This document shows positions 15,444-57,382 of a DNA stretch of 64,000 nt, one piece after another; the stretch's first letter is position 1; the number at the start of each line of letters is the position of its first letter. Below the pieces are notes generated by a model that was not told the DNA's origin, did not search any database, and saw only the letters and a list, made by a program, of their open reading frames with translations. The position numbers and the translations under genes were made by a program. This DNA is from a virus: the IMG/VR virus record IMGVR_UViG_3300030098_005409. One strand, given 5' to 3'.

Positions 15444-15672
15444 TTTGCTTTTCCATCGTTTCAACGTCGGCTAGTGCCTGTTCGTATCCACGAAGAAAAT
15501 TCTCTTCTGCAACTGCTAGCAGAAATTCTGGGAATTCGGCTGCAAAGACCTCAACTGCCATATCAACAGTTACATCTTCAGACCGAGCTAACCTCTCGCC
15601 AATATAATTAACGACCAGTTCTTTGAGTCCCGTCTCAGAACTCACAGTTTCATTTAAATCTATATTTTCCAT
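15436..15672 (-). CDS. Hypothetical protein
   Basis: Compact ORF coupled to its neighbours; start at MENIDL. Confidence 0.6.
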   Translation of the reverse strand: MENIDLNETVSSETGLKELVVNYIGERLARSEDVTVDMAVEVFAAEFPEFLLAVAEENFLRGYEQALADVETMEKQNV

Positions 15673-15679
15673 TTTAACC

Positions 15680-16999
15680 TCACAAATTTTGTGCGGCGAA
15701 TGTAGCAACTCTTGAACGCTCGCCCTTTAGAAGAGTTACGTGAGCAGCCAACTCAAAGTCTTTAAATTTCTCAACAGCATGAGTCAAGCCGTTCGTAGTA
15801 GCATCTATGTAAACGTTATCAATCTGTTCTACATCGCCCGTCAGCACAATCTTGGTTCCTTCACCAACTCTTGTTATTATAGTCTTTAATTCGTGAGTTG
15901 TCAAGTTTTGTGCCTCATCAATGATAATAAAAGCCTTTCCAATAGAACGACCGCGGATATAAGTGATCGCTTCAATCTCAATCGTGCCCTTCTCCAAGTA
16001 CATGTCAAGCGTAACCTTGTCATTGCCCATTAGAGTCTGAAGATTATCCTGAATCGGCATCAACCAGGGAGACATTTTTTCTTCCATCGTACCCGGTAAG
16101 AAGCCAATGTCCTTTCCTAGCGGCTGTACGGGTCTAGAAACGATTACACGGGTGTAGGTGGATGTTCTCTCGTCTAAGGTCTGTTCAAGGGCCGCAGCGA
16201 TCGCACAGAGCGTCTTACCGCTACCTGCTTTACCAATGGCTGTGATAACCTCAATGTCTGGGTCCATAAGGGCGTCTATCAAAAACGACTGCTCTTTGTT
16301 TCTCGGCTTGATGCCCCACACGCCCCTCTTTTCTTTTCGCAGCTGCCGTACGGGCGTATGTTCATTGATAAATCTTCCCAACGCAGTCTTTTTTTCATTT
16401 GCATTAGAAATAAGCATTACATACTCATTTGTTTTAAGATTAGTGTCTTCGAGATAAACGTCTTTTTTATCATAAAACTGATCTATTATTCCATCATCTA
16501 CTAAAACCTCTGAAAACCCAGTGTATATACTATCGCTATCATCGACAATCTGTTGATTTTGGAAATCCTCACACGGCAGCCCAATAGCATCTGCGGTAAC
16601 TCGCATGTTAATGTCGCGAGAAACAAGAATAACTTTTCTTTCAGATTCTCTTGCGACTGCTCTCGCAGTCGCGATAATAAGATGATCAGGGATCTTAATA
16701 TCTAAATCTTGTGGCAGATCATCTCTGTCTATATCTGCGGCAGATACTGATTTAACAATCCCCAGTCCTTGGCGAATGCGGACACCTTTTTTAAGGTTAC
16801 CCTTAGAGCGAAGTTCGTCCCAAATGCGTATAATCTTCCGCGCCTGGACTCCTACAAGGTCCTGACGCTTCTTGTGTTTGTCAATTTCCTCAAATACTTT
16901 TAAAGGGACATATACATCATTGTTTTTAAAAGCGTATATTGCGTCTGCGTTCGTTAAATAAACACTAGTATCTAACACATAAATCTTCTTACGGCTCAT
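15680..16999 (-). CDS. phoH: PhoH-family protein with N-terminal PIN domain
   Basis: PIN 'YVLDTSV...EEID...DHLI...SRDIN'; Walker A 'GKAGSGKT'; 'RGRS', 'IIDEAQN', 'GDVEQID'. Confidence 0.95.
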   Translation of the reverse strand: MSRKKIYVLDTSVYLTNADAIYAFKNNDVYVPLKVFEEIDKHKKRQDLVGVQARKIIRIWDELRSKGNLKKGVRIRQGLGIVKSVSAADIDRDDLPQDLDIKIPDHLIIATARAVARESERKVILVSRDINMRVTADAIGLPCEDFQNQQIVDDSDSIYTGFSEVLVDDGIIDQFYDKKDVYLEDTNLKTNEYVMLISNANEKKTALGRFINEHTPVRQLRKEKRGVWGIKPRNKEQSFLIDALMDPDIEVITAIGKAGSGKTLCAIAAALEQTLDERTSTYTRVIVSRPVQPLGKDIGFLPGTMEEKMSPWLMPIQDNLQTLMGNDKVTLDMYLEKGTIEIEAITYIRGRSIGKAFIIIDEAQNLTTHELKTIITRVGEGTKIVLTGDVEQIDNVYIDATTNGLTHAVEKFKDFELAAHVTLLKGERSRVATFAAQNL

Positions 17000-17782: not shown

Positions 17783-17860
17783 TGGTCGGGGCGGTAGGAT
17801 TCGAACCTACGACCCCCTGCTCCCAAAGCAGGTGCGCTAACCAGACTGCGCTACGCCCCG
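17783..17860 (-). tRNA. tRNA-Pro(UGG)
   Basis: CGGGGCG acceptor, anticodon loop TTTGGGA, GGTTCGAATCC, encoded CCA. Confidence 0.95.
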
Positions 17861-18292
17861 AATAATCTCCCATGTTTGATCTGGCAATAACTCAACCTCA
17901 GCCAAGAACTTGCCGGGATCTATTTTAATCCATTGATTGTCAGCTATTAAGGATAAAAAGTAAGTACCATCTTTTCTTTCATATAGAAAGTACTTATTTC
18001 CTATTACCGGCTGGATATTGAAATCTGCTTCGTAAATAATTTTAGACACATCCACTCGTTCTTTTACTTCTTTTACTTGTTCCATAATTAATTCAGCTTG
18101 CTTTCTTAGTTTATCTATTTCTTTTTCAGCATACCTCTCGGCTGCTGAGATGGCACGTCCCTTGATTGAGGACATGTCATTTGGTCTAATCGCGGGCGCT
18201 GCGGTATTCGTTCCATATGGCTTAATATTAGCATCAAATTCTTCTGTTTCATAGTTGTATACAACGTTGTCAGGAAATTTTTCTTTTGACAT
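17837..18292 (-). CDS. Conserved hypothetical protein (DUF2452-like); stop codon lies inside tRNA-Pro
   Basis: 'PVIGNKYFLYE...FLSLI...W'; ends IRGVAQSG*, encoded by tRNA nt 1-24. Confidence 0.7.
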   Translation of the reverse strand: MSKEKFPDNVVYNYETEEFDANIKPYGTNTAAPAIRPNDMSSIKGRAISAAERYAEKEIDKLRKQAELIMEQVKEVKERVDVSKIIYEADFNIQPVIGNKYFLYERKDGTYFLSLIADNQWIKIDPGKFLAEVELLPDQTWEIIRGVAQSG

Positions 18293-18296
18293 TCTC

Positions 18297-18704
18297 TTAC
18301 CATCGATGGTCTTTACCAGACCAGTCCTTAAACTCTTCTTTGCCTCCTCTTACACTCCAATCGGAATCTATTGTTAGTTTTGATGATAGTCCGCCTCTGG
18401 GATTGAAGTCCATTTCTATTCGAAGCCTGTTAGGGTCATAAACACTAATCAAGTCGTCATATACAACATTTATTAATCTTTCGTATGAAAGAAGTCGGTT
18501 TCGAAAATCTTGAAAATATTTTTTCAAAGACTTTAATTCAATAATGGTGTCTTTTGGATAAAAGACAATCCAGGCGGTTGCAAAATCGGGCTGATCTTTA
18601 ACTCCAATAAACGTAATTTCTGGATTTTTAATATTAATCTCATATCCATCCCCTGACGGATTTGGTAGAGTTTTTAGAATTGTTTTATCACTCCACTGTC
18701 TCAT
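18297..18704 (-). CDS. queF: QueF (type II, T-fold) homologue lacking the catalytic Cys
   Basis: 'LPNP', 'PEITF', 'QPDFA', 'IELKSLKKY', 'FRN', 'PRGG'. Confidence 0.8.
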   Translation of the reverse strand: MRQWSDKTILKTLPNPSGDGYEINIKNPEITFIGVKDQPDFATAWIVFYPKDTIIELKSLKKYFQDFRNRLLSYERLINVVYDDLISVYDPNRLRIEMDFNPRGGLSSKLTIDSDWSVRGGKEEFKDWSGKDHRW

Positions 18705-18729
18705 ACTACTAATGCCTCAATATATCTCA

Positions 18730-18805
18730 TGGTGGAGATGACAGGATTCGAACCTGCGACCTGATGCGTGCAAGGCAACTGCTCTCCCAACTGAGCTACA
18801 TCCCC
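18730..18805 (-). tRNA. tRNA-Ala(UGC)
   Basis: Cloverleaf, G3:U70, anticodon TGC, CCA. Confidence 0.95.
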
Positions 18806-18810
18806 ATATA

Positions 18811-18886
<76 letters not shown>

Positions 18887-19471: not shown

Positions 19472-20086
19472 CTAATCGTTGCTGGCGCGTAATCCCTCTG
19501 AATCCCAGCCGCCTTGCTCCCATTTTTCATTCATTATGTGATTAATCTTATTAAAGTGCATAAATCCCAAAGCGTGCCCGAGTTCGTGTTCGAGCACTGT
19601 TTCTCTTATATCTCGACGCATATAGATTTTAGCATACTGAATTTTATTTGTTAGGTTATCAACGTAAAAATGTGTCTGGGCTAAAGCCTTGTCTTCCATC
19701 GGAACTCCTGACGTTACTAAATGAATGACAACATATCCCACCGGCTCGTCCATCATGCACTTGTTTAAGGGGTCGTGCTTGTACTGGGTTGAAAAGAACC
19801 TATATCCCAAGCGCTTCCAGAAGTTTACAGCCTTAACAATCTGCCTTTGACTTATTGGGGCATGTTCACAAACTATAATCGTTGGCGTAAGACTCCACGT
19901 GGCTACTTGTGATGGGCTGTTATGAACAAGCGGTACCCGCTTATGATTACTATCAAAATCACTTGCTGCTGCAGTTGTGAACAGAAATAGAGAACCGATC
20001 CACAGTGCTATGACAAGCACTATAAACAAACCGGTCCAGTCTAGATGAGAGTGGTTCTTCATACAATATTTAGTTGAAAAAACCAA
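19472..20086 (-). CDS. Matrixin-like (metzincin) peptidase with N-terminal membrane/signal segment
   Basis: 'HELGHALGFMH' (HExxHxxGxxH) followed by Met-turn 'HIM'. Confidence 0.85.
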   Translation of the reverse strand: MVFSTKYCMKNHSHLDWTGLFIVLVIALWIGSLFLFTTAAASDFDSNHKRVPLVHNSPSQVATWSLTPTIIVCEHAPISQRQIVKAVNFWKRLGYRFFSTQYKHDPLNKCMMDEPVGYVVIHLVTSGVPMEDKALAQTHFYVDNLTNKIQYAKIYMRRDIRETVLEHELGHALGFMHFNKINHIMNEKWEQGGWDSEGLRASND

Positions 20087-20647: not shown

Positions 20648-20960
20648 TGGTGGAGGTGGTGGGAATCGAACCCACGTCCAAAGCATATCCAACTTCAAGT
20701 CATTCACAGGTATAGTTTGTTTCTCTAAACAAACAAAGTATCAAATTCGATTCAATCCGCTCAAAAAAGCAAAAGCGTTTTTTTGGTTGTGTTCTTCTTG
20801 GACACCCGGCGAAGAACAACCGGGGATTAAGCAGCTAGTGCTAAACCGTAATCTGCGTCGTTTGCAGTTATATGTTTCTAACTAAAGTTTTATGTGATTG
20901 AGTTAGCTGTCACAACCTGCACTATCCATCTTCCTTACCCTGTCGAAACCTGTCACCCCC
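20648..20960 (-). ncRNA. ssrA: tmRNA, tag ANDADYGLALAA
   Basis: 5' GGGGGTGACAGGTTTCGAC, 3' GGGTTCGATTCCCACCACCTCCACCA with Ala-type G3:U70; resume context ATAACT-GCA; tag codons 20865-20830, then TAA. Confidence 0.95.
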
Positions 20961-21334: not shown

Positions 21335-22171
21335 CTACTGTTCTAAAAGTTTGTCTACTAAACTTTCTAAATTAATTTCCATTCCTTCTTCCAACTCAAA
21401 ATCAGGAATGTCTGTCTCAGGTTCGCCTTCTTCTGGTGCAGCCACCGGCTCATCTGGCTGCGCATCTTGTGCTGCTTGTGGCTCCTCTGGGCTCGTCGCC
21501 AACTCTCCTTCAAACTTATCAAAATATAGCGCAAGGTTCTTCAGAAGGTATTCTTCAAACATTTTAATATCATTGGGGTTATCAAGATTATCGTATGCTA
21601 CTAGGATGTTTTTCTCGATATCTTGGAAGTCGTCATATGCCCTGTTACGACCGGTCTTATCTTCACCCTCAATACCAAACTCTTCTCTTTCATCGGGCTC
21701 TTCTGCTGGCTCTTCTACTTTATCTTCAACGTCAATAAACGCTGGATCATCCTCAGGCTTGTCGGAAATAGTTATATCGACATCCTCTTCCACAGCCTCA
21801 ATCTCTTCGTCTTCGCCGGCTTCCTTACGGGACTCTTCAGGTGCAAGAGACATCTCAACAGCATTGAGGATATGGGCTCTATATGAATCTCTCTGTTGCT
21901 TGTCGGTGGTAAGAGACTTATATCCTGTTTCAATAACAGATAATAAGTTAGAGTTCTTAAGAAGATCTTCTAAGGTATTAATGCCTGTACTTTCATGTTT
22001 CGCCACGGACGCAACATTACTCTTCTCGGATAGTAAAGTTCGAATGACAGAACGAAGCTCATTTTCTTCGTTTAATCTTTTTGTTTCTCTTCTACCTAAA
22101 ACGTGGCGAATGGCTTTGCGCACATTCTCACGGAGCATTAGCTCTTCTGCAAATTCTTTACGATCAATCAT
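21335..22171 (-). CDS. Acidic hypothetical protein, probable head-internal protein
   Basis: 'LRENVRKAIR', 'ELRSVIRTLLSE' tag-like helices; very Glu/Asp-rich. Confidence 0.6.
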   Translation of the reverse strand: MIDRKEFAEELMLRENVRKAIRHVLGRRETKRLNEENELRSVIRTLLSEKSNVASVAKHESTGINTLEDLLKNSNLLSVIETGYKSLTTDKQQRDSYRAHILNAVEMSLAPEESRKEAGEDEEIEAVEEDVDITISDKPEDDPAFIDVEDKVEEPAEEPDEREEFGIEGEDKTGRNRAYDDFQDIEKNILVAYDNLDNPNDIKMFEEYLLKNLALYFDKFEGELATSPEEPQAAQDAQPDEPVAAPEEGEPETDIPDFELEEGMEINLESLVDKLLEQ

Positions 22172-22173
22172 TT

Positions 22174-24333
22174 TTAGCCCACCGATATTCCTAGTAAATA
22201 GTCCATTACTTCAGTAACTAGCTCTTCATCTTCTTTAATGAAGTTCTTGGGATGCCTCTTCTTTTTCTTCTCAGAACCGGCCACTTTCGGCGCGCGCATC
22301 CCAAGGGGTAGAGAATAACCAGCGACGTTGCCACCGGCCATTGAAGACATTTCCTCAAGCTTTCCTTGGAGTATATCATATATTTCCTGATTATAAAATC
22401 CCATAATAGCTTCAAAATCTTCTTGAGAGGCACCCTTGAGAGCCTTTCTTAAAGTAGTTCCTGACATCTCACCAAATCCTGGGACATCAATCTCAACGTG
22501 CGGAGCTACTGCGATGTAACCATGCTTGTCAAGCCCCACAAGTTCTTCTCCGGGCCTGTATGTCTTGTAGTAAGCAGGAGTGCCTCTTTTGGTCATGCCG
22601 TCTAGATTGGCAAACCTGGGACTATCACGCATATCTTTGCCGCCAACAGCGAAAACAACAGCCGTTGATTCTGGGTCGAAGTTCTGAGTAAGTTCCACCG
22701 CCTGATATGGGTTCCTGCTCATCACAATCTTATCAGCAGGCACGCCGTGGGCGACCATAATCTTTTTCTTTTCTTCAAAGTCTAGGGGAGACTTAGGACC
22801 CATCTTATTGGAAGTTACGATAAAAGTATTCTCGTCGCCAAATTGATCAGCAAGCGCTTTATAAGTTGCATAATGGTGACGACCCATAGGCTGGAATCGT
22901 CCGGGATAAATGGCGATAACTTTCTTCTGATCTTGTTCATTCAGAGCCCAATTGACTGCCTCAGCCAAAGCAATCTTTACTTGACTTGCCTCACGAACCA
23001 AAGAAGTGATAGGAGCACCGCCAAGAAGGTTTTCATAAAGATCTTGATTCTTATTTATAACAGAGGGGAGATTACGAGACCACTCCAAAAGAGGCTTGGT
23101 CACAGAGAAACCATCAGATCCCCAGTATACAGTAAGACTTTCGGTTTGCTGGAACTTGGCGCCCTTATCAACAGCAAAGTTTGCCTTGCTGAATTCTAGA
23201 CGATCAACAAATTTGACACCGTTACCGATGTGATCAACAGCAACATAACCCTCTGGATTACTTGCGACAAGATCGCCTGAGCCATCGTCAATAAAATGCT
23301 TTGTGTTATACACAGCGTTGTTATACTTGGCGATGAATATATTTTTTGCCTCGAATAGAAGCCGCGAGACTTTGAAAAGGTTGAGGATATCTTCTTGCTT
23401 GCTATCGAAGGCTGCAAGCATTTCTTGACCTTTTTGGGTTGCTCGCATTTTTCCTTTTTCAGACTTTAGCTTATCAATTCTTTTTTCTAGACGACCTGAA
23501 TACCAACGCTTGAAACCTAAGAAAGATTTAGCTGGATCCTCAAGGAATTGACCACCCTTGATTTCAGAGTTAATGTAGATGTTAAGAAGATCCATCGGCA
23601 GACCTTCATAGTCAATCTTTTCATTGACCTGATCCGCGGCTGAAACTAATTCCTTCACCTTTGCTTCTTCATCTTCAGTTAAAGTAACAGTTCCAGTATC
23701 GTCTGTAAAATAAGCATCATCAACCCATACACCGGGAACCTTATTTAGACCACTTACATCAGCGCCGAAAGAAGCGCCACCGTCCAAACTATCATAAGTT
23801 GTATGAAAAACAATACCGAACTTTGATTCAGCGATCTCTTGTCCAAGCTTGGATTCAACTGGTGCGGCATAAGTAATAGTATTTGGCTTGAAAGCATAAT
23901 GAGGCTCGCCATCAACGTCGATGGTGCTAATCATCTCATCGTCAAACATAAAGTCTCCCTGGAGAATCTTTTGGATTCCTAGGGGAGGCAAGTATTGAAG
24001 TGCTTTTGTAAGCTTATCGACCAAACCCGGAGCGTGTCCGTGATTTCTCCGAACATCTTCGGGGGTATAGTTTATCTTTGGTTCTTTATTGAAGATAGAT
24101 TTGGTTCCAACAAAGAACTTACCATTTTCTGGATTAATACCAGCAAAAATAGCCGGCGCGCCATCCCACTTGACAGAGGTCTTTACTCTTGAATCAACAT
24201 TACCTTTTAACTCTTCTAACAACTCAAGCAGAAAAGCCCGAGCCATATCATATCCCTTTGGACCCTGTGTTAAAACAAGCTCTTCCAGGTGAGTTAAGTG
24301 TGTGTTTGCTTTGCCTTCATCCAGAAGAGACAT
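22174..24333 (-). CDS. Ligase-like nucleotidyltransferase domain (DUF6267-type) fused to a cytidylyltransferase-like domain
   Basis: 'VKWDG', 'LQGD', 'PEGYV', 'VKFVD'; then 'YPGRFQPMGRHH' and 'MSGTTLR'. Confidence 0.7.
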   Translation of the reverse strand: MSLLDEGKANTHLTHLEELVLTQGPKGYDMARAFLLELLEELKGNVDSRVKTSVKWDGAPAIFAGINPENGKFFVGTKSIFNKEPKINYTPEDVRRNHGHAPGLVDKLTKALQYLPPLGIQKILQGDFMFDDEMISTIDVDGEPHYAFKPNTITYAAPVESKLGQEIAESKFGIVFHTTYDSLDGGASFGADVSGLNKVPGVWVDDAYFTDDTGTVTLTEDEEAKVKELVSAADQVNEKIDYEGLPMDLLNIYINSEIKGGQFLEDPAKSFLGFKRWYSGRLEKRIDKLKSEKGKMRATQKGQEMLAAFDSKQEDILNLFKVSRLLFEAKNIFIAKYNNAVYNTKHFIDDGSGDLVASNPEGYVAVDHIGNGVKFVDRLEFSKANFAVDKGAKFQQTESLTVYWGSDGFSVTKPLLEWSRNLPSVINKNQDLYENLLGGAPITSLVREASQVKIALAEAVNWALNEQDQKKVIAIYPGRFQPMGRHHYATYKALADQFGDENTFIVTSNKMGPKSPLDFEEKKKIMVAHGVPADKIVMSRNPYQAVELTQNFDPESTAVVFAVGGKDMRDSPRFANLDGMTKRGTPAYYKTYRPGEELVGLDKHGYIAVAPHVEIDVPGFGEMSGTTLRKALKGASQEDFEAIMGFYNQEIYDILQGKLEEMSSMAGGNVAGYSLPLGMRAPKVAGSEKKKKRHPKNFIKEDEELVTEVMDYLLGISVG

Positions 24334-24336
24334 TGT

Positions 24337-24585
24337 TTACTTATCCTTGTTTTCTTCTAATATAGTAACCTGCTCTTCAAGAATGCTAACGCGCTCTTGA
24401 AGACGGCGCATGTGTCGTCTCACTTCTTTAAGACTTTGCCTAGCCATCTCAATCCGTCGCTCGTCAGTGCGGCTACGTGGAGATATATTCTGGAGAACCT
24501 CAGAGATAGACTGAAGATAGCTAGACACACTTGGTCCTTTGCCTTCATTTTGAATAAACTGGCGCGTTAGACGACGAAAGTCCAC
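24337..24585 (-). CDS. Small coiled-coil protein
   Basis: C-terminal heptad pattern. Confidence 0.6.
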   Translation of the reverse strand: MDFRRLTRQFIQNEGKGPSVSSYLQSISEVLQNISPRSRTDERRIEMARQSLKEVRRHMRRLQERVSILEEQVTILEENKDK

Positions 24586-24588
24586 GGC

Positions 24589-24828
24589 CTATTCCTTAGC
24601 GACTTTAGGTGTCGATGCTCTCTTTTTAGCGGCAGTCTTCTTTGTAGCAGGCTTGACAGTCCTCTTTATGGCTGGCTTGACAGCCTCTTCTACGACGGGT
24701 GCTGGTTCTGGCTCAACAACCGGTGCTGGTGCTTTCTTTGCTGCTGCCTCTTTTGCTGCTGCCTCTGCGGCTGCTTTCTTTGCCGCGGCCTCTGCTCTTC
24801 TTCTGCGTTTTATGTGTGGTGCTACCAT
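24589..24828 (-). CDS. Lys/Ala/Pro-rich histone-H1-like small protein
   Basis: 'AAAKKAAAEAAAKEAAAKKAP', 'KPATKKTAAKK'. Confidence 0.55.
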   Translation of the reverse strand: MVAPHIKRRRRAEAAAKKAAAEAAAKEAAAKKAPAPVVEPEPAPVVEEAVKPAIKRTVKPATKKTAAKKRASTPKVAKE

Positions 24829-24829
24829 T

Positions 24830-25633
24830 TTACTTAGACTCCTTTCTAACTCTTTCTAAGATTCTGCGGGTGATTTGCTTTGCCTCGTGGACAGAGATCA
24901 TCTTTGGTGCTGCTGTTTCCTCAACAGCCTCCTCGATCTCATCCTCAGCGCGACCGCAATGGGCTTCATCAAGATCCATATCTTTTGCCATTGAGGGGCG
25001 ATTTCCTTCTTCATCGCCGTGCTCCTTAGCATCTTTTGCGGCCTGCTTCATTGGCTCTTCTTTATCGCCATCCTTGTCTAGATCTAGGAAGTCTGGCTTG
25101 GCGGCTTCATTAAGAAGTCCCCACTTTTTCATCAACTTAGTGTTGATTTCGTTGTTTTTCCACTCTTTAAGTGACATTTTTGGTTCTCCTGTTTTTGAAA
25201 AATCAATCTCCACATTAATTTTTCCTGTTTTAATTAGGTCTTCAAAGTCCCTAAATATTAAATTTCCTTTTTCATATGCCTCTCGCTCCATTTCTCTAAG
25301 GTGCGGATCTTTCTGGGCATATCCTTCATAAGTAGGATTGTCCCTTGTAAAATCACCTCGGCAGTTCTGTGCGTGATGAACTAACTCGTGAGATAAAGAC
25401 CTTAAGATATCTTTTGGGTGTCTGCCGTCCGTGTAAAGAACAATCTGATAGTTCTCGGGGTCGTAATAAGCAGTTTTGCCCAGCATTCTACCAGCGTTAT
25501 CTTGATCGCTTTGAAAAACAATCGTTGCGCCCTTATCAAAACCTAGCTGTTTTTGCGAATAAGGAAAAAAGTTATCCACCATCTGCTCAAGATGATAGAC
25601 ATTTGCTGGTGTGTTGTTGATGCTTTTATGCAT
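24830..25633 (-). CDS. Zinc metallopeptidase with C-terminal acidic/EF-hand-like region
   Basis: 'SLSHELVHHAQ', 'EREAY', 'DLDKDGDKEE'. Confidence 0.7.
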   Translation of the reverse strand: MHKSINNTPANVYHLEQMVDNFFPYSQKQLGFDKGATIVFQSDQDNAGRMLGKTAYYDPENYQIVLYTDGRHPKDILRSLSHELVHHAQNCRGDFTRDNPTYEGYAQKDPHLREMEREAYEKGNLIFRDFEDLIKTGKINVEIDFSKTGEPKMSLKEWKNNEINTKLMKKWGLLNEAAKPDFLDLDKDGDKEEPMKQAAKDAKEHGDEEGNRPSMAKDMDLDEAHCGRAEDEIEEAVEETAAPKMISVHEAKQITRRILERVRKESK

Positions 25634-25636
25634 TGT

Positions 25637-25957
25637 CTAATAAATAGTTGAAAAAAGAAGAAAAAGAGCGCCCGATAAATGGTAAGCAAATACAAGAAGA
25701 TAGATTATATTCAACCCCAAAAGAATATTGAAGATCATTTTTTGAAATTTTATTCTGAAAAAATAAAGAATGTAAATTCCAACGATACTGAGCCCTAATT
25801 TAGCAAAGACAAATAGTGCCGGGGAACACTGTAAAAAGTAATTCATAATTGGGTTGGCTTCGGTAGCCAATCCAGTCTGCACCCAGAGTAAAGTTGCGAG
25901 GAGATCAAAAAGAATCAAAATAGTCAGTGAGTGAATCAGTCTAACTATTTTTTGCAA
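25637..25957 (-). CDS. Small membrane protein (DUF5658-like)
   Basis: 'LFDLLATL...EANPIM...FAKL'; three hydrophobic helices. Confidence 0.7.
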   Translation of the reverse strand: MQKIVRLIHSLTILILFDLLATLLWVQTGLATEANPIMNYFLQCSPALFVFAKLGLSIVGIYILYFFRIKFQKMIFNILLGLNIIYLLVFAYHLSGALFLLFSTIY

Positions 25958-25960
25958 TTT

Positions 25961-26155
25961 CTATCTCTTCAGTGCTTTGTCCAAAGCGTCTCTAACACCC
26001 TCAGCAGCCAGCCATTTAGGCTGTTGCCAAAACGGCACCAGCATGTGTCCAAGCATTCCTAATCCTGCTAAAAGCAACAAACCAGATAATCTTGATGAAC
26101 GCTTAAGGTGCGCCAACCAGCCTTCGTCTTTAAAATGTGCCCAATCCCAACTCAT
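25961..26155 (-). CDS. Small membrane protein
   Basis: Hydrophobic segment, 'HMLVPF'. Confidence 0.55.
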   Translation of the reverse strand: MSWDWAHFKDEGWLAHLKRSSRLSGLLLLAGLGMLGHMLVPFWQQPKWLAAEGVRDALDKALKR

Positions 26156-26478
26156 TATAATTTACCTTTCCCTGGACCTTTTTCGTATGAAATACTCTTG
26201 AATGCTTTTTCAAGATAATCTGCTGCTTTGGTGATCTTTGATTGAACCCAAGGCTCAAGGTTTTCGTCATCATGGAGCATATCGTGAAGTTGCTGTGCTT
26301 GCGCAGCCATATGGTAAAGTGACCGCTTGGCCATGTTGCCTTCGTATCCGTCTGGATCCTTCTCGTAGTTGTTGGAGGCTGGATCCAGCGTATTCATCTG
26401 TGGCATTTCAAGCAAAACAGAAGAGCCGTTCAACTCTTCAGCAATCATCTTTTTAAGTTCGTTTTTTGAGATTTTCAT
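26155..26478 (-). CDS. Tagged probable head-internal protein
   Basis: 'MKISKNELKKMIAEEL'; 'LEPWVQSKITKAADYL'. Confidence 0.65.
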   Translation of the reverse strand: MKISKNELKKMIAEELNGSSVLLEMPQMNTLDPASNNYEKDPDGYEGNMAKRSLYHMAAQAQQLHDMLHDDENLEPWVQSKITKAADYLEKAFKSISYEKGPGKGKL

Positions 26479-27185
26479 TATTTCTGTTCCTGTTGTTTAG
26501 CAGAGACTTTCAAAAGGTTTTTAAGAACAGCCTGCAGTGCGTTACGATATCTTATAAGGTCATCTTTTTCAGCTATATCAGTTAAGATCTTTTCAATCTG
26601 CACCAACATACCTCTTTCTTTATCATCAACCCCTCCTAAAGCATCGCCTTTTGCAATTGCTTTGGATTTTTCCAGTTCGCCTTTCGCTTGTGTTTGTTGA
26701 GTAACAATTCCGCTCCCAAAACCTTTAAGGGCATCATCTTGCTCCTCAAGCCCAACACCGCCACCAAAATCAGCATAACCCATGCTGTAGTAATTCATAG
26801 CTCCGGATCCACCGGTGCCATATGGCTGCTGACTCTTGGCAGGAGCCACGACTCTTTGGTCAGGCATTGGATGAGCGCCAGCATCTTCTAGGTCGTTCAG
26901 AGCCTTTCTAAGGCACGCAGACGCCTTGAAAGCGTGCTCATAGGCGCCGTCATAGATCGGCTCATCAAGAGCCTCTACGAGCTTCTCAGTAGCCTCTCTA
27001 GCCACGAGAGCGAGATCATATAAGTTGTTTGCCTCTGGATCTCCTTTGTCCTGCTCCGGAGTCTCTGTATCGGCAGCAGGCATTCTGTGTGGAACGCCTT
27101 CAGGAGCAGATGGCTCGTTAATTCCGCCGCCTGTAAACATAGCTTCTTTTACAAGCGCTTGAAGTTGTTTATAATCAATAGTCAT
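26478..27185 (-). CDS. Tagged probable head-internal protein
   Basis: 'MTIDYKQLQALVKEAM'. Confidence 0.55.
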   Translation of the reverse strand: MTIDYKQLQALVKEAMFTGGGINEPSAPEGVPHRMPAADTETPEQDKGDPEANNLYDLALVAREATEKLVEALDEPIYDGAYEHAFKASACLRKALNDLEDAGAHPMPDQRVVAPAKSQQPYGTGGSGAMNYYSMGYADFGGGVGLEEQDDALKGFGSGIVTQQTQAKGELEKSKAIAKGDALGGVDDKERGMLVQIEKILTDIAEKDDLIRYRNALQAVLKNLLKVSAKQQEQK

Positions 27186-27186
27186 T

Positions 27187-28344
27187 TTATCCCTTTACCA
27201 AGAAGCGATCAAATGTGCCCTTAAGATCGGCTAACTTATTTTCCTCTAGATTTCTCATCTTATCTTTTGCGACCGCCGCACGACCGCGACCCTGAGCAAG
27301 ATCTTTGGTTTTTTCAAGCTCTTGTGCCGCAGACCGGTCCGCACTTAGCTCCTCACCGGCTGCAAGCTGCAATTTGTCGTGGTGCTTCTCTGAGGGTAAA
27401 CCAGCCTTCTCGAACTTTTTAAGCATTCTGCGTAGGAGAACAAGATCGTCAAGTGCTGTCAGCGGACCAAGGAATTCAAGACCCATAAAAGTCCCGGCAT
27501 CAACAGGAGAAACGAAATTAAGAATAGCAAAAGCAGCTAAGAGTCGAAGTTTTGTTGGCGTGTCACGGTCGACGCTGGCCATAAACATGGCAGCCAAGTC
27601 GCGCCCACCGGGAAGATTTAGAAGCGCTTTCAAAACTGGGTTGCCTTTAGCTTCCTGTAGATCGCCGGTACCTAGCTTGTCGAGTAGTACATTTAAAACC
27701 TTGTCCTGCTCATCTTCTGGCATTGCTTCAATCGCATCTTCGGCAGTCTCAACTGGGTCTTTTGCCTCATCTAAGTCTTCCTTCTTAGAATCTTCTTTAG
27801 CGGCTTTTCTTGCTTTTTTGTTGGCGGCTTTCTTTTCGTCCTTGGTGGCATCTGGTGGTGTTTTTGCAACCTTAGAAGCTCTACCCATTGCCTCTTGTAG
27901 AGCTTCCTGAAGTTCTGTGTTAGACGACAATATAGACAAAAACTGCTCTCTAACGGCATCAACAATTAGGGCTGCAACCTCATCCGCTTGGTCTTTAATG
28001 ATTTTAGCAAATGCTCTTTGCATGAGTCCTTCAATTACATCTCCGTCAAATGGGATATCTGGCACAATCTTGGAGGCAATATCGTCTGCGTTCTCAATAA
28101 GGTGCGATTCTATCTGACGCGCAGCAATTCGTAAGAACAAACCAGCTGCAGCGTCCAGTACTGCTCCAGCGCTAGTGTTCTTAAAGGTTTCACTAGCAGC
28201 ATACCTCAGTGGCTCTTTAAAGTCCCCTATGTTTTTTAGTACGCCCTTTGCAGTAGCGGTTAAACTATTTTCGTTTTTCAACTCTTCCGAGACCATTTGT
28301 GCTATTTGGTCGATTATTCTTTTGTCCATGGTGGATTCTCCCAT
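27187..28344 (-). CDS. Tagged multidomain protein with a YkvA/DUF1232-like hydrophobic segment
   Basis: 'IIDQIAQMVSEEL'; 'AILNFVSPVDA...LDDLVLL'; repeated L-x-E sites. Confidence 0.55.
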   Translation of the reverse strand: MGESTMDKRIIDQIAQMVSEELKNENSLTATAKGVLKNIGDFKEPLRYAASETFKNTSAGAVLDAAAGLFLRIAARQIESHLIENADDIASKIVPDIPFDGDVIEGLMQRAFAKIIKDQADEVAALIVDAVREQFLSILSSNTELQEALQEAMGRASKVAKTPPDATKDEKKAANKKARKAAKEDSKKEDLDEAKDPVETAEDAIEAMPEDEQDKVLNVLLDKLGTGDLQEAKGNPVLKALLNLPGGRDLAAMFMASVDRDTPTKLRLLAAFAILNFVSPVDAGTFMGLEFLGPLTALDDLVLLRRMLKKFEKAGLPSEKHHDKLQLAAGEELSADRSAAQELEKTKDLAQGRGRAAVAKDKMRNLEENKLADLKGTFDRFLVKG

Positions 28345-28351
28345 ATGTTAA

Positions 28352-29335
28352 TTAGTCTTTTTTCTTTTGTAATCGTTTAGTTTTTTCTTTTGATGCTTCT
28401 TTTCTTTTCTCAGCGTGATCAAGAACTTTCTTCAATCTGGCTTTGGTCTTAGGGTCCTTAGCATTCTGATAGGCAGCCCGTACACGCTGATGGATAAGAT
28501 TAATAATCTGTGACTGACGCTTGTGAGACTTTGATTTGAAGGATTTCTTTGATAAGGTATCCTTTACATCTTGAACTGTTCGGAACTTTACTGACACTGT
28601 ATCACTTGGATCCTCGTCGGTGTAAAGTCTGCGTCCTGAACCTTTTGGTTTCTTGCCAGTTCCAGTCTTAGGATCCTTACCTTCTTCGGCCTTGATACAA
28701 TTTCTGTACGTCTTGCCGTACATCTTCTTAGTTTTGCGTTTGGGGTGAGTTTTATAACCCTTCTGGCAACGTTCTTGCAGTCCATCAGGCTCCATATATG
28801 GATGATCTTTAAGATACTTTTTCATCTTAGGTGCTGGTTCAATCCCAGCTTCTTGAAGTTTATTCGCCCACATAGACAGCATTGTCTCACGTATTTCCTC
28901 ATCTCCCCGGACAAAGTTTGCTTTTATGCCTGCTTCTTTGGCCGCCGCAATCTCTTCTTCGTCATCATCCCAATGTTCGATAACACCAAGAGATAAAAGA
29001 GTTTCAGCTTTCAAATCTCCATTTGTGTAGTGGATAGACTTGACGGGAAGATTCATACCGGCAACCAACTCTTCTGGCTCTGGTGCTGTATCCCATGGAT
29101 ACTTGTCTCCTGTGCGTTTCGATCGGGAAGTAACAATATAAACAGTTTCACCGGCAGCTGCGAGTTCTCTTAGTTTGGCGATGTTCTCTTCGTGGGGCTT
29201 GTCGTATATGGTGCTGAATTCAGGATCTTCAGGATCTGTCTTATACTTGATAAGTGTCTCGTCATAATCAAACGAGTAAGCGCCTTTCTTTTCTTCGTTT
29301 AGGAAGTTCTTCCAGTTTTCAAGTAGGAGTTTCAT
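28352..29335 (-). CDS. Tagged protein: HAD-like phosphatase domain plus basic C-terminal domains
   Basis: 'MKLLLENWKNFLNE'; HAD motifs 'FDYDETL', 'IVTSR', 'K', 'HWDDD'. Confidence 0.7.
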   Translation of the reverse strand: MKLLLENWKNFLNEEKKGAYSFDYDETLIKYKTDPEDPEFSTIYDKPHEENIAKLRELAAAGETVYIVTSRSKRTGDKYPWDTAPEPEELVAGMNLPVKSIHYTNGDLKAETLLSLGVIEHWDDDEEEIAAAKEAGIKANFVRGDEEIRETMLSMWANKLQEAGIEPAPKMKKYLKDHPYMEPDGLQERCQKGYKTHPKRKTKKMYGKTYRNCIKAEEGKDPKTGTGKKPKGSGRRLYTDEDPSDTVSVKFRTVQDVKDTLSKKSFKSKSHKRQSQIINLIHQRVRAAYQNAKDPKTKARLKKVLDHAEKRKEASKEKTKRLQKKKD

Positions 29336-29742
29336 TTCTTAGATACCTTCCAGCCGCCCATCATACCTCCAGGCATATCATATTCTTCAACATTTACAGA
29401 ATCATCCTGCTGCAGTCTTGTCCAGATTTTGGTGCCAGCCGGCGATTGCGATGGATCACTATATAGCACCCCCACATGATCGAGAAGCCACTTATAGAAA
29501 TCAGTCATATAGAAAGCAGCGTCTGATTCTTTTTTTGCATATTTGACTCTCACGCCATCTTCGTGAGGAACTACGTCCAACGTAGCTTTTGTTTTCCCCT
29601 CGGGATCCATTACAGAATAAACTATAACGTCGCCGCCGAAAGGACTAGATTCGCTAGACTGCAACACCTGATGTTTTCCAAAAGAACCCACTTCCTGGTT
29701 TTCTACCAAATACTTCCGCCAGTTTTCAAGGATTAGTTTCAT
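29332..29742 (-). CDS. Tagged protein, possible GNAT-like fold
   Basis: 'MKLILENWRKYLVE'; 'LYSDPSQSPAGTKIWTRL'. Confidence 0.5.
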   Translation of the reverse strand: MKLILENWRKYLVENQEVGSFGKHQVLQSSESSPFGGDVIVYSVMDPEGKTKATLDVVPHEDGVRVKYAKKESDAAFYMTDFYKWLLDHVGVLYSDPSQSPAGTKIWTRLQQDDSVNVEEYDMPGGMMGGWKVSKK

Positions 29743-29744
29743 GA

Positions 29745-30182
29745 CTAGTCCTTCCCGATATTACTTCTGTCCTGCCATTCGTGAGATGTTTCATCTGTAT
29801 CAATAGGGCCACCCGCAGCCCATGTATAGCACGTGCGCGCGCTGTGGCATTTAAAATGATGCATCCAGCAATAACCTAGCCGACCTTCTTCATCTTCAAT
29901 GGGCCCTGGAAAGCATTCGTCCATTCTTGGCGAGATATCAAACGCCGCGCAATTATTGCACATTGATTGTTTTGCAACCTCAACGGTTGTGTTCCAGTGC
30001 TCTGCCAGTCTATCATAGTATGCTTCATCAGCAAGATTAAGGGGTCCGTATTGAATGTGCTCTGCTTTGATGGCAGAATCACGGTTCTTTGTGTTTAATT
30101 CTAAATCCTGTGTGGCAGGGGGGCAAATGTATTTCTTTGCCTCTGTCAAAAACCTTTTCCAGTTTTCAAGTAGGAGTTTCAC
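29745..30182 (-). CDS. Tagged Cys/His-rich metal-binding protein
   Basis: GTG start 'MKLLLENWKRFLTE'; 'CNNC...GYCWMHHFKCHSARTC'. Confidence 0.65.
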   Translation of the reverse strand: MKLLLENWKRFLTEAKKYICPPATQDLELNTKNRDSAIKAEHIQYGPLNLADEAYYDRLAEHWNTTVEVAKQSMCNNCAAFDISPRMDECFPGPIEDEEGRLGYCWMHHFKCHSARTCYTWAAGGPIDTDETSHEWQDRSNIGKD

Positions 30183-30565
30183 TCTACTCCTCCAAACATT
30201 TTCTTAAACTTCTCGGGTGTCTCAGCTTCCTCGGAGACATCAAGGATCTTTGCCTTTATTGTTTCAACCTCTTGATTGATTGCTTTTTGTAGCCGATGGT
30301 TGCCATCCAAAACATACTTGAGCTGCCCATCTTTCTTGATGACTATAATAGGAAACTCTAAGCTCGCTGCTGCTACTCGCTCCTCACCTCTGGTTGGAAG
30401 AGGGGGTATTTGTTTGGAAAGTTCTAAAACATTAATGTCAATAGTTTTGTCTCCCAAGAAATCATCTATCTCTCCAAGTGTAACCTTTCCCTCATCATTT
30501 TCCCACGATGTATCGCGCCAACTTTCTGTAAGATACTGCCGCCAGTTTTCAAGGATAAGTTTCAT
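30179..30565 (-). CDS. Tagged ParB/Sulfiredoxin-like protein
   Basis: 'MKLILENWRQYLTE'; 'PIIV...VLDGNHRL'. Confidence 0.75.
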   Translation of the reverse strand: MKLILENWRQYLTESWRDTSWENDEGKVTLGEIDDFLGDKTIDINVLELSKQIPPLPTRGEERVAAASLEFPIIVIKKDGQLKYVLDGNHRLQKAINQEVETIKAKILDVSEEAETPEKFKKMFGGVE

Positions 30566-30570
30566 TTGTT

Positions 30571-31485
30571 TTACCACTTCTTACAGGACCAGTAGCGTGC
30601 CTTTGTTTTGGGTCCTGGGTTATCACAGTTGTGTCGAGCCCGGAAAGACTTGCGTCTCTTTGGATTAGACTTCTTGATTCTCATCTTCTTATCACCGAAA
30701 TTAACCTTCTTTACATTTCCGGTTTTCGGATCTTTGACATAAACTTTGAATTTTTTAACATCTCCACGCGTGGGTTTGTTGAGAGTAACCTTGCGACCCT
30801 GGTATTCTGCCTCGTAGACAAGATCAGGGCAGCCACAGGTAGCTGTATCTAGTTGTTCTACCAAGCAAGCAACACACGCTGGGGTACCGTCATCAAGGAA
30901 AGCTTCTGTTAAGTAAGGAAGAATATCGTTCTCCAAAAGATGACGATTAACCTCTTCTGCGATAATGCCATACAATTCGTCTCTGTTCATATCAAGATTC
31001 TCCTTCTTGGCGCCTTTCTTGCCCCAAGACTTGCCTTTTCCTTTTTCCTTACAAGCCCCCGGAGTTGGGCGGCAAGCAGGGTACTTAGAGCGCTTCTCGC
31101 CCTTCTCGCGGCCACAAGACTTATAGCCACCCTTGCCGTCTGGGGCATTACAATCAACCCAGCCACTCTTCTTTCCCTTGGCGCCTTTGCGTCCAAACCA
31201 ATCTCGGAGGCTACTTTCTTTACTAGATTCAGTTCCGGCTTTTTTCTTTTTGGCTTCTTCAAGAAGGTCTTCATACTCTGTGTTCTCTGCAAGATCGGCA
31301 TCTTCGATCTCCTCTTTGACACCCTTCCAGATTTTACCGGCTCGACAGCGCACAACGGCGCCGGAAGCATATGCTGAGGGCCATACATCATATTTACGTT
31401 TAGCGATTCTTGTGCAACGATCATCTTTTTCTTCGATGATGTCTTCTTCTAGATAAGAACTCCAGCTTTCAAATAAGTACTTCAT
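30571..31485 (-). CDS. Tagged multidomain basic, Cys-containing protein
   Basis: 'MKYLFESWSSYLEE'; internal 'ELYGIIAEEV'; 'WPSAYASGAVVRCR', 'RRKSFRARHNC...ARYWSCKKW'. Confidence 0.65.
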   Translation of the reverse strand: MKYLFESWSSYLEEDIIEEKDDRCTRIAKRKYDVWPSAYASGAVVRCRAGKIWKGVKEEIEDADLAENTEYEDLLEEAKKKKAGTESSKESSLRDWFGRKGAKGKKSGWVDCNAPDGKGGYKSCGREKGEKRSKYPACRPTPGACKEKGKGKSWGKKGAKKENLDMNRDELYGIIAEEVNRHLLENDILPYLTEAFLDDGTPACVACLVEQLDTATCGCPDLVYEAEYQGRKVTLNKPTRGDVKKFKVYVKDPKTGNVKKVNFGDKKMRIKKSNPKRRKSFRARHNCDNPGPKTKARYWSCKKW

Positions 31486-34022: not shown

Positions 34023-35261
34023 ATGAGCGTATTTCGCAAGCATGAATCAATTGTCGACCGGTCAGCTAGCGACCGAACCCGACACAAAAAGAAGATCGAA
34101 AAAGCAATCAAAGAATCTATCAAAGATGTGGTTGCAGACGAGTCAATTATCGGGCAAAATGGCAAGAAAAAGATTCGAATTCCTGTTAGAGGACTCAAAG
34201 AGTATCGTTTTGTCTATGGATCTGGCAAGAAAAACAAGACTGTTGGATCTGGCGGCGATCATAAGCTTAAAAGAGGTCAAAAGATTGGTAAACAACGTGC
34301 GAAGAAGGGGTCTGGACAGGGAACTGGCAAGGCAAGCAATAAAAAAGGCGATCAATACTACGATGTGGAGGTTACTCTTGAGGAATTGGCTGAATATCTC
34401 TTCGCTGACCTCGAACTCCCAGATTTAGAGAAGAAACAGTTCCGCTTCATCACCCAGGAGACCGTAAAGCGCAAAGGATATCGCTTCCAGGGCATCCGAC
34501 CGAGACTTTCAAAGAAGGAAACTCTAAAAAGAAAGATTCGACGCCAAAAAATGGCTGAAAAGACCGGCGCTTACGACCCTGAGTCCGATGAGCGCTTCCC
34601 TTTTCACAAAGATGACATGAAATATCATCACATCAAGCCCAAGGCAAAGGAAAACTCATCAGCAGTCATCTTTTTCTTGATGGATGTGTCCGGATCGATG
34701 TCTCAGGACCGCAAATATCTTGCAAGATCCTTCTTTTTCCTTCTTTATCAGTTTTTGAACCACCGATACGAGCGAGTTGAGGTCGTTTTTATCTCCCACT
34801 CCACTCATGCCGAGCGAGTAAACGAAGATGACTTCTTTAAAGTCGGCACATACGGCGGAACTATCATCTCTTCGGCACTTAATCGACAAATGGAGATTGT
34901 TGAGAAAGAATTTCACCCAAATGCTTGGAATATTTATACATTTTACTGTGGCGATGGTGAAAATTGGGCATCTGACAACGAAAAGTGCATTGATTTGTTT
35001 AAAGAAATCAAAGAAGTCAGTCAATTAACGGCTTATTGTGAAATAAATGAGCACTATAAGGGCTTGGATGATGAATCCCTACAAGATGATAGGTTTAAAA
35101 CCAGCCCCTGGGCCAATTTTTCAGCGTGGAAAAACGAAGAAATGGATAATTTGTGGTCCAAATTGAAACCAATTACTGATAATAAGTTTAAGAGAGTAAT
35201 GATTGGACAAACAGAACATATTTGGTTGGCATTTAAAACACTTTTCGGCGGGAGTAAGTAA
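34023..35261 (+). CDS. yeaH: YeaH/YhbH (DUF444) vWA-domain protein
   Basis: 'RHKKKI', 'RIPV', 'EYRF'; MIDAS 'MDVSGSM', 'GGTIISS', 'GDGEN'. Confidence 0.92.
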   Translation: MSVFRKHESIVDRSASDRTRHKKKIEKAIKESIKDVVADESIIGQNGKKKIRIPVRGLKEYRFVYGSGKKNKTVGSGGDHKLKRGQKIGKQRAKKGSGQGTGKASNKKGDQYYDVEVTLEELAEYLFADLELPDLEKKQFRFITQETVKRKGYRFQGIRPRLSKKETLKRKIRRQKMAEKTGAYDPESDERFPFHKDDMKYHHIKPKAKENSSAVIFFLMDVSGSMSQDRKYLARSFFFLLYQFLNHRYERVEVVFISHSTHAERVNEDDFFKVGTYGGTIISSALNRQMEIVEKEFHPNAWNIYTFYCGDGENWASDNEKCIDLFKEIKEVSQLTAYCEINEHYKGLDDESLQDDRFKTSPWANFSAWKNEEMDNLWSKLKPITDNKFKRVMIGQTEHIWLAFKTLFGGSK

Positions 35262-35262
35262 A

Positions 35263-36570
35263 ATGAGTGACTGGACAGTTGCAGATTTGCAAAAATGGGA
35301 TGACAAAATCTGTCGCGTTGGCGAAGATTTTGGTTTAGACTGGTTCCCGATTGATTATGAGATCATTGATTACGCTGAAATGCTTGGAGCGATGGCTTAT
35401 ACGGGACTTCCAACCCATTATCGCCACTGGTCGTACGGAAAAGAGTACGAAAGAACCCACACACTTTACAATATGGGCCAGACCGGACTACCTTATGAGA
35501 TGATTATTAACTCAAATCCGTCTATCGCATACTTGATGAGAGAAAACGCTCTCTACATTCACATTTTGACGATGGCGCACTGTGTTGGTCACTCGGATTT
35601 CTTCAAACAGAACCGTATGTTCGCGCATACAGACCCAGCTAACATCATTGTGAGCTTTAAATCAGCCGCCAAATACGTACGTCAGCTAATTGAGGATCCT
35701 TCAATCGGGATTGATAGAGTTGAGAAGATTTTGGACGCAGCGCATTCAATCAAGTATCAGGTTCCAAGATATCCAGGAATCAAATATAAGACCCGTGAGG
35801 AGGTTCTTGAGATTGAAAAAGACAAAATGGCTGAGAATATTAACTACAAACCGGACTTATCCAAGGTTCCTTTGCGCCCAGAGTACAACCTATTACGGTT
35901 TATTGCCGAGAACAGCAAACATTTGGAAGAATGGGAAAGAAATCTTATCCTTATTGTTGAGGAATCGTCCAAATACTTCATTCCTCAGGCTCTGACCAAG
36001 GTTATGAACGAAGGATGGGCTTGTACGATCCACCAAAAGATTATTAACGAGTTGAATTTGCCTGATAGTTTGTATCTTCCCTTTATTAAGCTACACAATC
36101 AGGTTATTCGACCGCACTTGGGGCAACTCAACCCTTACCACCTGGGTTATAAGTTGTTCCAGAAGATCATTGAAGAGAAAGGCTTTGAGGAAGCAATGAC
36201 AATCCGAGAAGTCCACAATGATATAACGTTTCTTCGTTTCTACATGGATGAAGAGTTTATGAAAGAGAACAACTATTTCTCATACTCTTTTGATAAAAAG
36301 AAGCAGTCGTCTGTTGTAGACGACATATCTGACGGAGAAGGCTGGGAAAATGTTAGAGATGCCATGATTGGAAATGTTGGTCTCAACAGATTACCCGTCG
36401 TCTTTGTCGACGAGGTAGAGAAAGATAACACCCTTTGTCTTGTTCATGAACATGACGGTAGGGATATAGAGTTGAATTATGCCCGAAAGGTTTTCGAATT
36501 TATTGAAACTCTTTGGGGAGATAGTGTAAAATTAATCACAATAGTGGAAGATGAAATATGGGAGTTTTAG
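35263..36570 (+). CDS. spoVR: SpoVR/YcgB family protein
   Basis: 'HYRHWSYGK', 'YEMIINSNP', 'AHCVGHSDFFK', 'MNEGWA', 'NPYHLG'; start at ATG 35263. Confidence 0.92.
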   Translation: MSDWTVADLQKWDDKICRVGEDFGLDWFPIDYEIIDYAEMLGAMAYTGLPTHYRHWSYGKEYERTHTLYNMGQTGLPYEMIINSNPSIAYLMRENALYIHILTMAHCVGHSDFFKQNRMFAHTDPANIIVSFKSAAKYVRQLIEDPSIGIDRVEKILDAAHSIKYQVPRYPGIKYKTREEVLEIEKDKMAENINYKPDLSKVPLRPEYNLLRFIAENSKHLEEWERNLILIVEESSKYFIPQALTKVMNEGWACTIHQKIINELNLPDSLYLPFIKLHNQVIRPHLGQLNPYHLGYKLFQKIIEEKGFEEAMTIREVHNDITFLRFYMDEEFMKENNYFSYSFDKKKQSSVVDDISDGEGWENVRDAMIGNVGLNRLPVVFVDEVEKDNTLCLVHEHDGRDIELNYARKVFEFIETLWGDSVKLITIVEDEIWEF

Positions 36571-36571
36571 C

Positions 36572-56900: not shown

Positions 56901-56967
<67 letters not shown>

Positions 56968-56977
<10 letters not shown>

Positions 56978-57279: not shown

Positions 57280-57305
57280 TTTATTCTTCTTTCAATTTGG
57301 GTAAA

Positions 57306-57382
57306 TGGCTGGGGCGGTTGGATTCGAACCAACAACCTCCGGGGTAACAACCCGGCGTCCTTGCCAATAGGACCTCGCCCCA
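57306..57382 (-). tRNA. tRNA-Asn(GUU), non-canonical body
   Basis: TGGGGCG/CGCCCCA acceptor, G73, anticodon loop TTGTTAC, A8/U14, CCA. Confidence 0.85.

Follow-up and report, generated by a model that had tools for sequence, protein, structure and literature searches.

Why should a row of otherwise unrelated phage proteins begin with the same short peptide? The question is raised by a 64,000-nucleotide stretch of viral DNA (IMG/VR record IMGVR_UViG_3300030098_005409, hereafter the window), which is part of a large marine phage genome encoding PhoH and many glycosyltransferases. Five adjacent, tightly packed genes on its minus strand (28352-31485) encode proteins of 304, 128, 145, 136 and 327 residues in transcription order; four of them open with the leader MKL[LI]LENW[KR]x[FY]LxE, designated here tag 1, and the remaining one with the divergent version MKYLFESWSSYLEE. 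By analogy with phage T4, tag 1, which in its wider form reads MKL[LI][LF]ENW[RK]x[YF][LI]xE, is likely to be a capsid-targeting leader of the T4 type, attached to hypervariable internal-protein cassettes in an uncultured clade of marine T4-like myophages. A second leader, MK[IL]TKxxLKxIIxEE (tag 2), is probably also capsid-targeting.

A preliminary description of this DNA had stated that five consecutive unrelated proteins share their N-terminal peptides, and this is borne out by the five open reading frames (ORFs) of the array, whose products show no significant pairwise similarity beyond residue 14 (all E > 0.3). A degenerate DNA pattern for M/V-K-L-[LIM..]-L-E-N-W matched the window four times, always at the start of a gene of the array, and gave no match in 100 shuffles. 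In-frame stop codons are located 1-19 codons upstream of the tag-1 starts, indicating that the tag peptide is the true N-terminus. All five leaders terminate in [L/I]-x-E (FLNE, YLVE, FLTE, YLTE and YLEE). In the AlphaFold2 (AF2) model of the 128-residue protein, residues 1-25, with predicted local distance difference test (pLDDT) values below 50, comprise a short helix (residues 3-11) and, behind it, a disordered linker; confident folding sets in near residue 28, which suggests that the tag is an appendage outside the domain.

Scanning of IMG/VR with the degenerate pattern M-K-L-[LI..]-[LF]-E-N-W-[RKN..] revealed at least 175 tagged ORFs at no fewer than 120 loci. At least 139 unique complete tag-1 proteins, 66-900 residues long, were obtained, and among the matches listed, to which all figures on conservation and cargo families given below also refer, they form at least 78 cargo clusters (BLAST, E < 1e-5), including 57 singletons. 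At the positions left free by the pattern, Y/F occupies position 11 in 91% of the tags, L/I/V/M position 12 in 93% and E position 14 in 78%. A combination of [LIVMF] at position 12 and E at position 14 is present in 107 of the 139 tags, and several tags that lack E at position 14 have [LIVM]-x-E one residue later. The sequences thus converge on [YF][LIVM]xE, the motif at which the gp21 protease of T4 cuts, and past residue 14 conservation stops abruptly. Synonymous codons are used freely for the conserved residues (six different ones for the Leu at position 3 and five for the Arg at position 9), indicating that selection acts on the peptide. Searches with hidden Markov models (HMMs) of both tags, proposed in the preliminary description, placed all strong matches in the window, in its relative G001 and in G002 at ORF starts. 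The cargos of tag 1 identified with Pfam belong most commonly to HAD_SAK_1 (10 members), followed by DUF2608 (5), NUDIX (4) and Pkinase (3); Zeta_toxin/AAA_33 kinases, RNase_T, NT5C and other families are also represented.

In 596 Gb of bacterial and archaeal genomes, the extended tag-1 pattern was found in five stretches only, all of them in metagenome-assembled genomes (MAGs). The MAG 'Candidatus Pelagibacter sp. TMED166' carries a tag-1 gene on the 116-kb contig NHHP01000006.1 (L272) and has genes of the gp21-like protease family S77 on two contigs, one of which is probably this same tagged contig (C6). The presence of S77 genes suggests that the tagged contig is probably a mis-binned phage, or possibly a hint at the host. 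Two other tag-bearing MAGs that were checked gave no S77 match.

A protease of the gp21 family (Peptidase_S77, PF03420) was found in all six tag-1 contigs that are at least 90% complete, in eight of the 15 tag-1 contigs overall, and in 10 of 10 tag-2 contigs tested. The mid-size IMG/VR contigs tested represent 16-53% fragments of ~180-kb genomes, and none of 25 contigs is a complete small genome. The prohead protease, which the preliminary description had proposed to locate, is also encoded by G001 (81 kb), a relative syntenic with positions 11.7-39.3 kb of the window at ~80% nucleotide identity. In the head module of G001, terminase and portal (phrog_213) are followed by two small genes, a tagged gene of 164 codons (MKLIMENWRQF...), a membrane protein, the S77 protease (phrog_207, 4.9e-59) and a gene beginning with MEISKEELEKIIKEEI; the tagged gene is therefore situated between portal and protease. 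In the complete genome of G002 (203 kb), which contains about nine tag-1 genes and several tag-2 genes in total, MKLLLEHWNRYLQE is found at the position matching the MEISKEELEKIIKEEI gene of G001, and in G005 a canonical tag 2 is carried by the gene directly past the protease.

The S77 proteases of the marine clade themselves start with ...KLLREFYELCE (L125-L129). The T4 gp21 protease starts with MNEPQLLIETW (L274, T4 103448-104926), which resembles the LLLENW core of tag 1, and the N-termini of T4 gp22 (MLKEQLIAEA) and gp24 (MAKINELLRE) resemble tag 2. Comparison of the N-termini of the protease and the T4 core proteins thus shows that both leaders resemble core head components, and, judging from these sequences, the cargo leaders may have been copied from the N-termini of core proteins.

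The combination of a leader, a gp21 site and plastic internal-protein (ip) loci has been known as a principle in T-even phages since the 1990s. The T4 capsid-targeting sequence (CTS), 10 residues in length, suffices to target proteins into the prohead core; its residues 4 and 7 are important for targeting, those at 8 and 10 for processing, and gp21 cuts after Glu in the motif L/I-X-E (PMC9026906). The internal proteins of T-even phages are a diverse set with the leader alone in common (PMC3012670), and Ip1-3 of T4, the genes of which occupy a genomic hotspot, are injected inhibitors of the GmrSD restriction enzymes (PMC12373910). As read from the sequence, the T4 proteins IPII and IPIII begin with MKTYQEFIAE.

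Like the leaders of the T4 ip loci (IPI, IPII, IPIII and Alt), the marine tag is a short N-terminal extension of otherwise unrelated proteins that ends in [LI]-x-E, the gp21 cleavage motif, in a lineage encoding a gp21-family protease. In both systems, the genes form tandem series in plastic regions, vary from one close relative to the next and have the leader DNA as the cassette boundary, and the peptides share an outline consisting of an M-K-x-hydrophobic-x-E start and an aromatic-[IL]-x-E end. However, the marine tag comprises 14 residues (MKLLLENWRKYLNE) instead of the 10 of MKTYQEFIAE, and its genomes contain a second type of leader as well. The repertoire also differs, since at least 78 cargo clusters, many of them enzymes of 200-900 residues, are found in the marine phages, whereas those of T4 are small protein inhibitors. 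The marine phages infect uncultured marine bacteria, and their system, unlike that of T4, is known from genes alone.

By analogy with the T4 internal proteins, the amphipathic N-terminal helix of a newly made protein would dock onto the assembling prohead core, and the shell would then close around it. The S77 prohead protease would cut past the Glu of the terminal [LIV]-x-E, freeing the cargo inside the head, and the cargo would leave the head with the DNA at the next infection to act ahead of any phage gene expression.

Processing of internal proteins has also been described in the giant phages phiKZ, 201phi2-1 and SPN3US, in which a diverged gp21 homolog cuts many proteins of the head interior after Glu and paralogous ejection proteins share identical N-terminal stretches (PMC5694885). 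The propeptides of the giant phages are mostly longer than 100 residues, with the motif S/A-x-E, whereas the marine leaders consist of 14-16 residues and end in [LIV]-x-E, as in T4. Closer to the window, the cultured marine and aquatic T4-like phages Melnitz, HTVC008M and immuto share a syntenic module (DUF6267, cytidylyltransferase, HExxH and NT5C/HAD) whose proteins open with a short helix that has [LI]-x-E at its end, for example MKKFSEIIEA, MKKSQLRQIIKEAL and MGKVNKAYIENIIKEIL; unlike the marine clade, these phages have neither the tag-1 nor the tag-2 pattern. In Melnitz (14525-16866, L004) and HTVC008M (107221-109011, L003) a cytidylyltransferase-like enzyme and its neighbours start with MKKFSEIIEA, MKKFSELTSELIE and MKTLKELLRK, which are very like the T4 leader MKTYQEFIAE.

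The five genes of the array, all on the minus strand, differ widely in what follows the leader. The gene of the 304-residue protein (30571-31485) carries its divergent leader at 31444-31485. The protein has a pI of 9.3 and 12 Cys residues and is composed of small modules, which in the pelagiphage (podophage) HTVC027P are encoded by separate tiny untagged ORFs (L001 3043-3891). Its C-terminal module is phrog_7595, labelled 'HVA1 family' in some records and present also in roseophages and a Nitrosopumilaceae spindle-shaped virus. Its Cys-rich N-terminal module follows MKKLLESWDRFLNE in G001 and MGKVNKAYIENIIKEIL in immuto, where this cargo thus stands behind a different leader, and has no leader in HTVC027P.

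The gene of the 128-residue protein (30179-30565; leader MKLILENWRQYLTE at 30524-30565, tag HMM score 32.7 bits) is extended by ORF calling to a GTG at 30577, and its start was placed at the ATG at 30565 because of the conserved tag. The cargo is predicted to have a ParB N-domain/sulfiredoxin fold (AF2 mean pLDDT 76; top Foldseek matches to sulfiredoxin, Noc and ParB); its DGNHR motif is invariant in six homologs, and ParB-like PHROGs match weakly. The 145-residue protein, encoded by a gene with a GTG start (29745-30182; leader (M)KLLLENWKRFLTE at 30141-30182), is acidic, contains seven conserved Cys residues and has a 90%-identical ortholog in G001. The gene of the 136-residue protein is located at 29332-29742, with the leader MKLILENWRKYLVE at 29701-29742 (tag HMM score 30.1 bits). 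The last gene (28352-29335; leader MKLLLENWKNFLNE at 29294-29335) encodes the 327-residue protein, composed of a HAD phosphatase domain, in which the sequence DYDET (motif I, DxDx[TV]) begins at residue 22, and a basic extension at the C-terminus. This protein matches phrog_415 (polynucleotide kinase/phosphatase; 1.2e-8), has no Pfam match at E <= 0.1 and gave no tblastn match among cultured phages. Elsewhere (L122) the Cys-rich domain is fused to the basic tail of the HAD protein.

Among the cargos named in the preliminary description, the HAD phosphatase is supported by the DxDxT motif directly past the tag and by phrog_415, and the ParB/sulfiredoxin (Srx) protein by its predicted fold. The 145-residue protein is Cys-rich as described, and its AF2 model (pLDDT 38) allowed no fold to be assigned; for the GNAT-like protein, which is the 136-residue cargo, there is a weak lead from Atlas only. 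The peptidase (HExxH) and the ligase-like nucleotidyltransferase are present and untagged, and no kinase was found in 21335-31485. The whole of this stretch is not a tagged toolkit as had been suggested, recognisable tags being present on only five (plus two with tag 2) of its ~14 genes. As to the proposal of two families of portable packaging tags, the part that stands is that the tags are portable and strictly N-terminal, end in [LIV]-x-E, occur in T4-like carriers with a gp21-family protease, are attached to genes of the head module and mark cassette junctions.

The cargos may have a role in counter-defence or in RNA and nucleotide repair. If the tags are capsid-targeting leaders, sequence alone would be enough to list which proteins the abundant uncultured phages of the ocean inject, and proteins that act ahead of phage gene expression would be prime counter-defence candidates. 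The payloads, mostly enzymes acting on nucleotides or RNA ends, would point to injected activities directed against nucleotide-signalling or RNA-cleaving defences. The T4 packaging principle would then be both ancient and diversified, and new targeting peptides would become available for loading phage heads. More tentatively, uncultured marine T4-like phages could possess a large, fast-reshuffled arsenal of capsid-delivered enzymes served by two leaders, one like the N-terminus of the prohead protease and the other like that of the conserved protein encoded just past it, and the two leaders might set docking sites, copy numbers or release order. Such an arsenal might include, equally tentatively, HAD phosphatases, Nudix hydrolases, kinases, exonucleases and ParB/Srx NTPase-like proteins, and its counter-defence and nucleotide/RNA-repair effectors would be readable from metagenomes by their tag.

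The position of tagged genes within the head module, adjoining the protease, would be expected also if the tag directed proteins into the prohead and these acted within the head itself, as core or scaffold accessories, counter-ions for DNA condensation or size determinants, some of them being degraded like T4 gp67 and gp68. The strongly basic character of the 304-residue protein and of the C-terminus of the 327-residue protein (pI 9.3, 21-22% K+R), as in DNA-binding internal proteins, and the small size of most tag-2 proteins (median near 100 residues) agree with such a function. However, many cargos are enzymes (HAD, Nudix, kinases, exonuclease and ParB/Srx) with no obvious role in a capsid, and their variation between close relatives fits accessory effectors better than assembly parts, which makes action confined to the head unlikely.

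The nature of the cargos could be explained differently if the peptide were a cytoplasmic docking tag, unrelated to the capsid, that gathers enzymes on a phage hub such as a trans-assembled RNA/nucleotide repair complex or a replication factory. Nucleotide- and RNA-end-processing enzymes dominate the cargos, HAD_SAK_1 being named for 'Swiss Army Knife' RNA repair proteins, the array adjoins a ligase-like/cytidylyltransferase fusion, and the tag is modelled as an exposed helix on a flexible linker. Docking of this kind would leave unexplained the conserved [LIV]-x-E terminus, the location of tagged genes between portal and protease and of tag 2 just past the protease, and the tag-like N-terminus of the protease itself, and we regard it as improbable.

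Several observations count against the interpretation of tag 1 as a T4-type capsid-targeting leader. The protease and the head module lie outside the 64-kb window, their presence in this phage being deduced from the relative of ~80% identity. Since large phage contigs from the sea are mostly T4-like, a high baseline of co-occurrence with S77 is to be expected. The likeness of the marine tag to the T4 CTS is one of pattern only, the peptides being too short for statistics and homology not demonstrable. Glu at position 14 is missing from 22% of the tags, and neither tag pattern is present in eight cultured genomes (immuto, Mel-JY01, HTVC008M, Melnitz, T4, S-PM2, P-HM2 and P-RSM6). The T4-type late promoter (TATAAATA) was not enriched in a scan of the window, and none was found before the array. 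In one ortholog of the ParB/Srx protein (L044:2249-2596:+) tag residues 8-15 are deleted between two W-R repeats (ENWR...SWR), and the [LI]-x-E end is gone.

Other searches were of limited reach. A tblastn search of cultured phages with tag queries of 23-25 residues, probably too short, found nothing, and a similarity search with residues 1-40 returned only orthologs of the 136-residue protein, its word filter being unsuited to a tag census. No description of either tag was found in a literature search on tags and capsid targeting in marine phages, for which most subscription journals were outside coverage.

The array is also a site of gene exchange. Comparison of the window with G001 showed that homology extends through the gene of the 145-residue protein and 24 nt of the next tag, is then lost, and reappears 5 nt ahead of the HAD gene's start; the 136-residue cassette, consisting of tag and cargo, is thus an insertion bounded by tags and absent from G001. 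In place of the ParB cassette of the window, G001 has a tagged ORF of 75 codons, and the two sequences become homologous again precisely at the start codon of the gene of the 145-residue protein. One and the same cargo can be found behind different leaders in different phages, and domains have also been recombined. Cargo cassettes enter, leave and replace one another at the tag-coding DNA, which acts as their junction. In the window, two non-adjacent tags share the same first 24-25 nt, and the remaining two show 2 differences within the first 24 nt.

Tag-only micro-ORFs of 10-11 codons (MKLLLENWRG[IL]stop) were observed directly before three different untagged genes; they are located at L046:2167-2202:+, L049:5885-5920:+ and L060:3537-3572:+ (G002 20050-20085) and on the minus strand of L076. 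For two of the three versions, the ATG of the gene behind them directly follows the stop codon, and the GAGG of the remnant stands at the Shine-Dalgarno position for that gene. The micro-ORFs resemble scars left at the tag when one cassette replaced another.

Breakage of indels at the tag, the 25-nt identity between non-adjacent genes, the micro-ORFs with GAGG at the position of a ribosome-binding site in two of three versions, and precedents for gene-shuffling cassettes in T4-type phages (PMC2839356 and PMC4122927) would suit a conserved element that is mainly DNA or RNA, either a cassette junction or a translation-initiation region comparable to the promoter/stem-loop cassettes of T4-type hyperplastic regions, with the peptide as a by-product, but this is very improbable, as the amino acids are kept across IMG/VR while the codons vary, and the C-terminal half, [YF][LI]xE, is conserved at the peptide level, with little identity between the DNA sequences. 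A translational or RNA element was rejected as the main explanation on the grounds of synonymous variation. A role of the tag as a junction is compatible with a role of the peptide, and a nucleic-acid element is possible as a second function beside the capsid-targeting one.

The preliminary description had assigned the second leader to genes starting at 26155, 26478, 27187 and 61542, which holds for the first and the last of them. Here tag 2 takes the form MKISKxxL[KR]x[IM]IxEEL, and the minus-strand genes at 26155-26478 and, outside the array, 61542-63002 encode proteins of 107 residues (leader MKISKNELKKMIAEEL, tag-2 HMM score 22.0 bits) and 486 residues (leader MKISKSSLRRIIREEL, 24.5 bits), respectively. 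Homologs of the 107-residue protein with the same leader are present in IMG/VR. The N-terminal helices of the proteins of 235 (26478-27185) and 385 residues (27187-28344), also encoded on the minus strand, are MTIDYKQLQALVKEAM and, from the sixth codon, MDKRIIDQIAQMVSEEL; their likeness to tag 2 is loose (below 6 bits with the tag-2 HMM), and neither protein matched a Pfam or PHROG family. Scanning of IMG/VR with the tag-2 pattern yielded at least 151 unique proteins, mostly of 70-150 residues, with the consensus MKITKSQLKQIIKEEL. An ORF of 352 codons in G002 (106766-107824; L140:6766-7824:+) contains two in-frame tag-2 motifs, MKVTKSKLKQIINEEL at residue 1 and MKVTKAQLQEIILEEL at residue 228, and may represent two cassettes fused to a polyprotein that the protease could split.

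The window is linked to the T4-like marine myophages by the DUF6267 domain, terminase and other genes. Of the cultured phages, Flavobacterium phage immuto and Microcystis phage Mel-JY01 are its closest relatives (terminase ~46% identical), and cyanomyophages, HTVC008M and Melnitz come next. The untagged minus-strand neighbours of the array (21335-25633) are syntenic with modules of HTVC008M, Melnitz, immuto and cyanomyophages, and include a fusion of DUF6267 and a ligase-like cytidylyltransferase (22174-24333), the HExxH protein (24830-25633), an acidic protein of 278 residues and two small basic proteins.

Scans of the window for sigma-70 promoters and terminators were uninformative. A phage-encoded transfer-messenger RNA with the tag ANDADYGLALAA is located at 20648-20960, and ten tRNA genes are found at 17783-18886 and 56901-58769. 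Nearly all genes of the window are on the minus strand. The sole substantial block on the plus strand (34023-38506) is a yeaH(DUF444)-spoVR-prkA-like trio with strong matches to phrog_19072, 35217 and 22605, which is 82% identical in nucleotide sequence in G001.

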